From the NCBI RefSeq assembly GCF_003334255.1, contig NZ_QOWU01000130.1: a DNA stretch of 2,825 nt. One strand, written 5' to 3'. Each line of letters begins with the position of its first letter. Position 1 is the first letter of the stretch. A program made the translations under genes and the position numbers. The DNA comes from Escherichia coli. Lineage in GTDB: Bacteria; Pseudomonadota; Gammaproteobacteria; Enterobacterales; Enterobacteriaceae. Below the pieces are notes generated by a model. That model searched no databases, was not told where the DNA came from, and was given only the letters and a program-made list of their open reading frames with translations. Shown one piece after another: positions 1,409 through 1,574 of the stretch.

Positions 1409-1439
1409 TTGAGAGTATTTTGTCGGGAGTGGTTATAAA
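1409..1439 (+). promoter_or_regulatory. Weak sigma70-like promoter candidate (TTGAGA -35 at 1409-1414, TATAAA -10 at 1434-1439, 19-bp spacer) upstream of rep
   Basis: Hexamers read directly; the spacer is longer than optimal. A 7-bp-stem hairpin (1443-1449/1467-1473) would lie in the resulting rep leader. Confidence 0.15.
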
Positions 1440-1560
1440 TTAGCCCCTGCGAGTCTTCCACCACTCCAGGGGCGCGACCACCTAGAACATGAACTGATTT
1501 GACGACAATTGGTACAGGTGATACAGGAATGATAACACGCAATTTCGTCTGTCGCTCGCA

Positions 1561-1566
1561 AGGGGA
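1561..1566 (+). promoter_or_regulatory. Shine-Dalgarno-like sequence for rep (AGGGGA, 8 nt upstream of ATG)
   Basis: Purine-rich AGGGGA read directly at 1561-1566; rep ATG at 1575-1577. Confidence 0.5.
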
Positions 1567-1574
1567 CGGCAGAC

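Follow-up and report, generated by a model that had tools for sequence, protein, structure and literature searches.

The 2825 nucleotides (nt) of Escherichia coli DNA analyzed here, which we call the window, hold a small rolling-circle plasmid, and our subject is the stretch in front of its replication gene, rep, at positions 1409–1574. This stretch appears to be the leader that controls rep expression, not the origin of replication. In the model we favor, a short antisense RNA made from within the stretch would stop translation of a small leader frame that would otherwise open the rep ribosome-binding site; we put the probability of this full antisense/leader-coupling model at roughly 0.55. 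The origin most probably sits just upstream, in an invariant sequence that we call block A. The first-pass annotation, working from one sequence, had concluded that neither the expression of rep nor the place of the origin could be settled from sequence alone. For a single sequence that was right. With relatives alongside it is not, for they yield a specific model.

About 100 related plasmids entered the comparison, in three sets. The first comprised ~25 complete Col(MP18), ColpVC and Col(BS512) plasmids with Rep 67–99% identical, plus two distant ones at ~50%. The second was made up of 58 metagenome contigs carrying the conserved block 1514–1538 (block B), and the third of 24 genome contigs carrying block A (1314–1338), among them plasmids of Legionella, Acetobacter, Gluconacetobacter, Salinivibrio and Vreelandella with Rep 58–66% identical. 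What can be seen directly in these alignments is conservation, covariation, a strand-specific asymmetry of G.U pairs and the positional conservation of signals across lineages.

The best-conserved non-coding part of 1409–1574 is block B, ACAGGTGATAyrGnAATGATAACAC, which is nearly invariant in 42 distinct relatives and has highly variable flanks. We read it as two overlapping signals, the -10 of a promoter on the minus strand and a Shine–Dalgarno sequence with its ATG on the plus strand. The elements on which this reading turns are the following.

1529–1537, minus strand: extended -10 promoter TGTTATCAT (TGn + TATCAT) predicted for an antisense RNA, from positional conservation
1436–1522, minus strand: predicted countertranscript of ~85 nt, whose complement in the rep leader takes in the leader Shine–Dalgarno
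1477–1522, minus strand: predicted stem-loop I (helix D), arms 1515–1522 and 1477–1484, with a variable loop that includes TTGACG at 1499–1504
1444–1472, no strand assigned: hairpin C, CCCCTG(C)GAGT, an 8-nt loop and ACTCCAGGGG, with a conserved bulged C, from covariation
1516–1522, plus strand: candidate leader Shine–Dalgarno AGGTGAT, 6 nt before the ATG at 1529
1529–1588, plus strand: putative leader open reading frame of 19 codons (MITRNFVCRSQGDGRHEKS) with a TGA stop 11 nt inside rep, from signals and positions
1547–1574, plus strand: hairpin E, a predicted mRNA stem-loop whose last base immediately precedes the rep ATG
1575–2573, plus strand: rep, rolling-circle initiator, from Pfam Rep_1 and the HUH and ExxxY motifs

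We looked for extended -10 elements (TGnTAnnnT in which 4 or more of 6 positions agree with TATAAT) on both strands of the 300 nt upstream of rep. In the window and in L005, L015 and L009, TGTTATCAT is the only one. A minus-strand extended -10 also stands at -32 to -39 in L019 (TGTTAGCAT), L020 (TGGTATATT) and L098/L099 (TGTTAGAAT), where the surrounding sequence aligns poorly or not at all to the window, and in Acetobacter plasmids the corresponding position, a little before the rep start, holds TGTTATGTT or TGGTATAGT. In most of these plasmids no second hit turns up on either strand of the 300 nt. When the 100 nt upstream of rep were shuffled lineage by lineage, such an element arose by chance in 1–2.5% of shuffles. 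Within the clade the nine bases of the -10 have suffered a single substitution (A to C in L009), and it falls on the free 'n' position; the variable bases of the block, 1524–1527, separate the -10 from A1522, where the RNA is predicted to start. An antisense promoter and its RNA are, on this evidence, likely. A 60-amino-acid open reading frame on the minus strand (1360–1542) has its start upstream of the predicted antisense RNA start.

The antisense RNA itself was drawn with its 5′ end 7 nt downstream of the -10 and its 3′ end at a hairpin with a U-rich tail. Its minimum free energy fold consists of exactly two hairpins (-30.7 kcal/mol, z = -2.6), and an RNAalifold consensus built on 37 sequences reproduces the two-hairpin structure, arriving at the stem-loop I helix independently. 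Across the alignment 99.4% of the cells in the two helices are paired, against 34–50% in slid controls, and five pairs show compensatory change. Helix D favors the minus strand: of its 33 cells that depart from Watson–Crick pairing, every one is a G.U pair there and a C.A mismatch on the plus strand, so that pairing stands at 99.6% on the minus strand and 89.9% on the plus. Hairpin C (99% of cells paired; compensatory double changes in 5 of 11 pairs) is likely to be stem-loop II and the terminator of the antisense RNA, as well as the matching target hairpin in the rep leader. The 9 nt that follow it hold on average 5.4 T on the minus strand versus 1.4 on the plus; most of the clade has this U-rich minus-strand tail, and the U-run is canonical in L004, L042 and L046. 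On the plus strand, the leader could take either of two folds around an ACCACCU element, a possible switch. Rfam 15 covariance models run over 1300–1600 returned no family even at E up to 10, and their hits elsewhere were at chance level. A single-strand-origin reading of the minus-strand promoter was rejected: the stem in question is broken by C.A mismatches in the plus strand, the one displaced, and the -10 would be unpaired.

One sub-lineage does something different with its leader. L014, L015, L016, L022, L046 and L077 carry an insertion of 65–130 nt between the equivalents of window positions 1434 and 1441, and all of them have a second CAGGTGAT(C/T) copy just before it. Between this copy and the leader Shine–Dalgarno there can be competition for pairing with GATCACCTG, which may amount to an alternative-structure switch.

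On the plus strand the same bases would be a ribosome-binding site. AGGTGAT is invariant in 41 of the 42 relatives (L019 has AGGTGAC) and has 7 nt of complementarity to the 3′ end of 16S rRNA. The frame that it precedes has 19 codons and ends at the same position in 40 of 41 distinct relatives, by TGA, TAA or TAG, and that position is kept even where the Rep N terminus differs (L009, L061). Equivalent frames occur farther afield. The L019 frame has 16 codons and ends in an ATGA overlap with rep; L020 has a Shine–Dalgarno-preceded frame of 20 codons running from -49 to a stop at +11, and L098 one of 8 codons from -34 to -10. The chance of such a frame is 4–10% per lineage. The window frame runs through hairpin E, which covers part (GGGG, 1562–1565) of what is in any case a weak rep Shine–Dalgarno. 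Hairpin E has a predicted stability of -16.6 kcal/mol in the window, and its counterparts in five other lineages range from -10 to -18 kcal/mol; four of its eight core pairs show compensatory changes and, in pairs 125–147 to 129–143, it has 47 G.U cells on the plus strand versus 0. Whether ribosomes leaving the leader frame would open the rep start is, to our minds, evenly balanced.

The strongest competing idea is that the antisense RNA acts directly, as it would for pC194 and pUB110 and as RNAII does in pMV158, and that the leader frame is fortuitous, untranslated or unneeded. The leader peptide is not conserved and shows no third-position bias among relatives, so the argument for the frame is one of signals and positions only; if the frame matters, it would be its translation that matters and not its product. 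A reverse frame is just as open (30 of 31 sequences) and, with no codon-position signal, openness could simply result from the GC-rich hairpin E, which the frame overlaps and where base pairing already limits how the sequence may vary. A direct translational block is, moreover, the mechanism proposed for Rep_1 plasmids (PMC5703833). Against all this, the predicted antisense RNA ends ~50 nt upstream of the rep Shine–Dalgarno and therefore would not cover it directly. Nor would direct action account for an invariant 7-nt Shine–Dalgarno at ideal spacing before an invariant ATG, for a stop position maintained through three different stop codons and a changed Rep N terminus, or for the improbable recurrence of such frames in L019, L020 and L098. 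We consider direct action unlikely, though a good deal less so than the alternatives below.

For the promoter of rep, two candidates come into play.

1393–1421, plus strand: candidate weak rep promoter, TTGCGT (1393–1398), a 17-nt spacer and TATTTT (1416–1421), from alignment
1409–1439, plus strand: TTGAGA, 19 nt and TATAAA, lineage-specific, with TATAAA missing in L018, L003 and all ColpVC plasmids

The first-pass annotation had seen no strong promoter here, and this holds up well: a consensus scan of the whole window on both strands found no sigma-70-like site (1.9 ± 1.4 are expected from the shuffled window), and a looser scan of 1409–1574 gave only weak or non-conserved candidates on the plus strand. 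It had also placed TTGAGA at 1409–1414, TATAAA at 1434–1439 (spacer 19) and TTGACG at 1499–1504, all correctly. As a rep promoter, however, TTGAGA/TATAAA finds no support: its conservation fails already in L018 and L003, the nearest Col(MP18) relatives, and it is probably not the conserved promoter. The better candidate is TTGCGT-17-TATTTT, whose TTGC...GTAT..T is conserved in the clade and which aligns with strong promoters in two outgroup plasmids, TTGACA-17-CAGAAT in L020 and TTGACT-18-GATAAT in L098, each ~80 nt after the start of block A. From it the rep transcript would start near 1428, with a leader of ~146 nt. That this is the exact rep promoter we rate at slightly less than an even chance. 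Its weakness fits, because plasmids controlled by antisense RNA only make their essential transcript at a low rate relative to the antisense RNA (PMC5717011).

Could block B itself be the rep promoter? The -10 would then be AATGAT (1528–1533) on the plus strand, and an mRNA from ~1540 would keep hairpin E only and have no antisense partner. AATGAT is invariant and has A2 and T6; several ColpVC plasmids have xxGACA 16–18 nt upstream, and the Legionella plasmid L098 has TTGGCA-16-TAACAT at the same place. Yet the nearest -35-like hexamers in the window are 20–23 nt away, GACA does not keep a fixed distance from the block (relatives differ by up to 5 nt), and L020 has no usable plus-strand -10 there. 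A plus-strand promoter would also fail to explain why CAGGTGATA is invariant, why helix D shows its G.U asymmetry in favor of the minus strand and why the U-tract is on that strand too. We find it improbable.

An equally long shot is that the conserved features are DNA, not RNA. Hairpin C, the CACCTG/CAGGTG inverted repeat and the TGATA block would together make an origin enhancer for HU and/or Rep. There is precedent in pKYM, whose origin is reported as 173 base pairs (bp) with a core Rep site and a downstream HU-binding enhancer (PMC4439123), and in pUB110, whose Rep spreads from the origin across the rep promoter (PMC5703833). The compensatory changes in hairpin C would suit a DNA cruciform just as well. 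What argues for RNA are the departures from Watson–Crick pairing, which are G.U only and strand-specific (minus in helix D, plus in hairpin E), as expected of RNA and not of duplex or cruciform DNA. Moreover, Col(BS512), Legionella, Acetobacter and Salinivibrio plasmids do not conserve block B although their block A is identical and their Rep related, so block B is not something that Rep has to recognize. Counted from the first base of block A, an origin of 173 bp would run out near 1485, short of block B.

The repeats that first drew attention to block B fare differently from the signals that we see there. The coordinates given earlier for TACAGG (1513–1518 and 1522–1527) and TGATA (1519–1523 and 1530–1534) are right, and both motifs are mildly over-represented in the window as a whole: TGATA occurs 7 times versus 2.6 expected (2 of 200 shuffles reach 7), and TACAGG 3 times versus 0.5 (2 of 200 shuffles). 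The TACAGG repeat is lineage-specific, its second copy elsewhere being TATGGC, TACGGC or TACGGA. The TGATA pair is not kept in the outgroups, where L019 has TGACA and TGCTA and L020 has neither in register. We rejected TGATA as an iteron or other direct-repeat protein site, because its copies decay differently in L019 and L020 and what persists instead is the minus-strand TGnTAnnnT and the plus-strand Shine–Dalgarno and ATG. A Fur box was rejected too (AATGATAA fits the core by eye, with only 9 of 19 positions matching overall), and inspection of 1490–1510 by eye gave no convincing match to an IHF site.

This brings us to the origin.

1314–1338, plus strand: block A, CCTTGTATTTATACTTAAGGGATAA, predicted double-strand origin (Rep nick and binding core), from invariance and homology

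Block A lies just outside 1409–1574, ~250 nt upstream of rep. No relative of the ColpVC, Col(MP18) or Col(BS512) type departs from it, amid flanks that cannot be aligned, and it is unchanged again in the Legionella, Acetobacter, Salinivibrio and Vreelandella plasmids, Rep of only 58–66% identity notwithstanding. Its invariance thus extends over several orders of bacteria. The bridge to known origins is L021 (NZ_AP022539, Rep 49.7%), which at the equivalent site has CCTTTACTTGATACCTTAGGCATAAC, a gapless 18 of 26 match to block A that contains the canonical CTTGATAC. In pC194 and pUB110 the matching site, which likewise precedes rep on the coding strand, reads CTTGATA, and pC194 additionally shares ...AAGGGTAA with the block A region (an AAGGG-TAA likeness). 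The pC194 nick falls at CTTG/ATA. By homology the nick here would be ATTT/ATAC, between T1323 and A1324, with T in place of G at the predicted -1 position. The exact CTTGATA is absent from the window, where none of the TGATA sites is preceded by CTT, and the first-pass annotation was correct that 1409–1574 contains no canonical CTTG/ATA nick site. We hold it very probable that block A is the origin. As for the nick sites which that annotation had raised instead, TGATA at 1519–1534 or the hairpin loop at 60–140, there is next to no chance of either: TG/ATA does resemble the pC194-family core, and GGTTGATGATAG does fall in the loop between the arms of a perfect 12-bp inverted repeat (76–136), but TGATA is lost in L019 and L020 while block A stays invariant and aligns to the pC194/pUB110 nick region (a far better candidate), and 60–140 cannot be an essential origin because it belongs to a segment (2717–2748 plus 1–265) found in only 10 plasmid records and entirely missing from pPM18 (NC_013652), whose Rep is 99% identical.

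The 2089-bp Col(BS512) plasmids we take to be pKYM-like, and only on that assumption would block A be the pKYM core origin. One of them, L108 (CP077278.1, Rep ~67% identical), shares strain FDAARGOS_1385 with the present plasmid; it has an identical 27-nt origin block, TCCTTGTATTTATACTTAAGGGATAAAT, and an unrelated leader and antisense region. That two coexisting replicons share the block suggests that plasmid compatibility is not determined by the nick-site block. In L010 (NZ_CP017225, 305–607) and similar RefSeq records, a 'hypothetical protein' of ~100 amino acids is annotated from the origin block through the leader to the very beginning of rep; it is probably spurious, because conserved non-coding signals occupy the same stretch.

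Put together, the proposed circuit would run as follows. Rep would nick the plus strand within block A at TTT/ATAC, the homolog of CTTG/ATAC in pC194 and pUB110, and a weak constitutive promoter just downstream of the origin would transcribe rep. On the minus strand, TGTTATCAT (1537 to 1529) would fire the antisense RNA of ~85 nt, from 1522 to about 1436. The same bases on the plus strand would act as AGGTGAT-N6-ATG, the ribosome site of the 19-codon frame. Hairpin E would close the rep Shine–Dalgarno, and ribosomes translating the leader would open the rep start through translational coupling. The amount of antisense RNA should follow copy number; pairing with the leader, its 5′ end would mask the leader Shine–Dalgarno, and less leader translation would mean less Rep, giving feedback on copy number.

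Several points, besides the equally open reverse frame, weigh against this scheme. Its steps are drawn from comparison, the transcript ends, nick position, leader translation and regulatory outcome all being predictions. TGNTANNNT by itself is not rare in the window (4 matches versus 2.5 expected), and the antisense promoter lacks a recognizable -35. The U-tract of the window, UAAUUUAU, is weak and was not called by a terminator scan, and L019, L020 and L098 have none, which makes the 3′ end of the antisense RNA uncertain. The candidate rep promoter matches only 7 of 12 consensus positions. In Legionella the predicted antisense start lies upstream of the leader Shine–Dalgarno, so direct masking would not apply there. 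Finally, an HU enhancer of the pKYM type could overlap hairpin C.

The plasmid itself is easily placed. Bases 1–77 recur at 2749–2825 when the window is compared with itself, which means that the window goes once round a circle of 2748 bp and overlaps its own start. It is 99.8% identical to the E. coli plasmid CP077277.1, of replicon type Col(MP18). The only long open reading frame is rep (1575–2573, plus strand, ATG at 1575). Residues 68–317 of its product match Pfam Rep_1 (PF01446; E = 9.1e-86, model positions 2–252 of 253), and a search of NCBIfam with Rep gave no match, so the family call depends on Pfam. HPHFHTLL (the HUH motif) and VVETLKYSTKP (in which ETLKY is ExxxY) can be read by eye in the translation; in pC194 Rep the catalytic residues of ExxxY are Glu210 and Tyr214 (PMC5703833). 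The domain, HUH and ETLKY together mark a rolling-circle plasmid of the pC194/pUB110 type in a Gram-negative host. The exact Rep sequence is found on 653 public contigs under the name 'plasmid rolling circle replication initiator protein Rep'. Plasmids of this kind also turn up in genome assemblies of unrelated taxa. Contigs L089 and L092 (Rhodosalinus), L096 (Streptococcus hillyeri) and L093 (Rhizobium wenxiniae) carry enterobacterial-type versions, with Rep matches 69–91% identical to that of the window over 33–327 residues. Several of these contigs are short (L093 is a 33-residue Rep fragment on a 555-bp contig, also with a window-type leader), and their occurrence looks more like contamination than true host range.

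Elsewhere in the plasmid are two inverted copies of a sequence of ~80–105 nt, at 429–533 (plus) and 911–1022 (minus), their arms complementary at 78% over 58 nt and 80% over 35 nt. The same ~80 nt recur at 92–97% identity in about 860 plasmid records, mostly conjugative E. coli, Shigella and Salmonella plasmids of 85–120 kb, along with some 1549-bp plasmids. Within them GGTAATCGTAT...ATACGATTACACATCCTGTCCCG resembles an oriT of the IncI1/R64 type, an inverted repeat followed by a CATCCTG/T nick core. The plasmid is typed 'mobilizable' though it has no relaxase gene, and oriT-like copies, if we identify them correctly, would explain this. In the region that the two copies bracket is the strongest intrinsic-terminator-like site of the window (626–651, plus), CCCCCTGACACAGGGGG followed by A and nine T, for which Rfam offered a Trp_leader match at chance level only. 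The ~300-bp accessory segment missing from pPM18 lies between direct repeats of ~100 nt (262–363 and 2621–2716) and is confined to this plasmid type and to 2.85-kb plasmids with Rep just 49.6% identical. It holds the perfect 12-bp inverted repeat (76–87 and 125–136) around a 37-nt loop, and a run of eight G at 69–76; one possibility is that it is a single-strand origin.

How does the proposed control region compare with systems already described? With pC194 and pUB110 the plasmid shares a Rep_1 initiator bearing HUH and ExxxY, a same-strand origin predicted upstream of rep in sequence that resembles their CTTGATA region and an antisense RNA predicted opposite the 5′ region of rep. It differs in its nick core (ATTTATAC here, CTTGATAC there), in the distance from origin to rep (~250 nt against about 90–125 nt) and in an antisense RNA that is predicted to miss the rep start and appears to act through the leader frame. 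Antisense RNAs opposite the Rep translation start have been predicted for pC194 and pUB110, and in the same review the only antisense RNAs proposed for the Rep_1 family are direct-acting ones (PMC5703833). The characterized Gram-negative member, pKYM from Shigella sonnei, likewise has a long origin (173 bp) upstream of rep. In pMV158, a Rep_2 rolling-circle plasmid, a short countertranscript with an intrinsic terminator (RNAII) also limits Rep synthesis; RNAII blocks repB translation directly and works with CopG, whereas here there is neither a copG nor a direct overlap with the rep start.

The closest parallel comes from outside rolling-circle plasmids altogether, in R1 (IncFII), where translation of tap is coupled to that of repA. 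Following the CopA/tap/repA logic of R1 (PMC5717011), a small constitutive stem-loop antisense RNA would target the rep leader where ribosomes bind for a short leader frame, a stable hairpin would keep the ribosome site of rep itself closed, and the leader frame, ending at or just past the rep start, would couple rep translation. The differences are substantial. R1 replicates by the theta mode with an unrelated initiator and has an extra repressor, CopB; here there is no repressor gene, no sequence similarity (this would be functional analogy, not family membership), and the antisense -10 physically overlaps the leader start codon. Full-text searches on pKYM, ColpVC and the block A sequence turned up no account of this control region, and a prior description in the pKYM literature is possible. 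We would suggest, tentatively and with the odds somewhat against us, that ColpVC, Col(MP18), Col(BS512) and probably the Legionella and Acetobacter relatives share an independently arisen R1-like circuit, in which an antisense RNA blocks a leader frame needed to open the rep site and its -10 shares nine bases with the leader start codon on opposite strands.

Cryptic plasmids of 2–3 kb like this one are very common in clinical and environmental Enterobacteriaceae, and their relatives populate hundreds of plasmid records. PlasmidFinder-type schemes know them as replicon types, with control regions that carry no annotation. A defined origin (1314–1338) and a control cassette (about 1393–1588) would be of use in annotation and in minimal vectors, and would allow a test of whether plasmids with the same nick block and different antisense regions can share a cell. 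Should leader coupling fail, the region would still be an ordinary Rep_1-type antisense-controlled leader. Should it prove true, rolling-circle and IncFII-type theta replicons would have arrived at the same circuit by convergent evolution.

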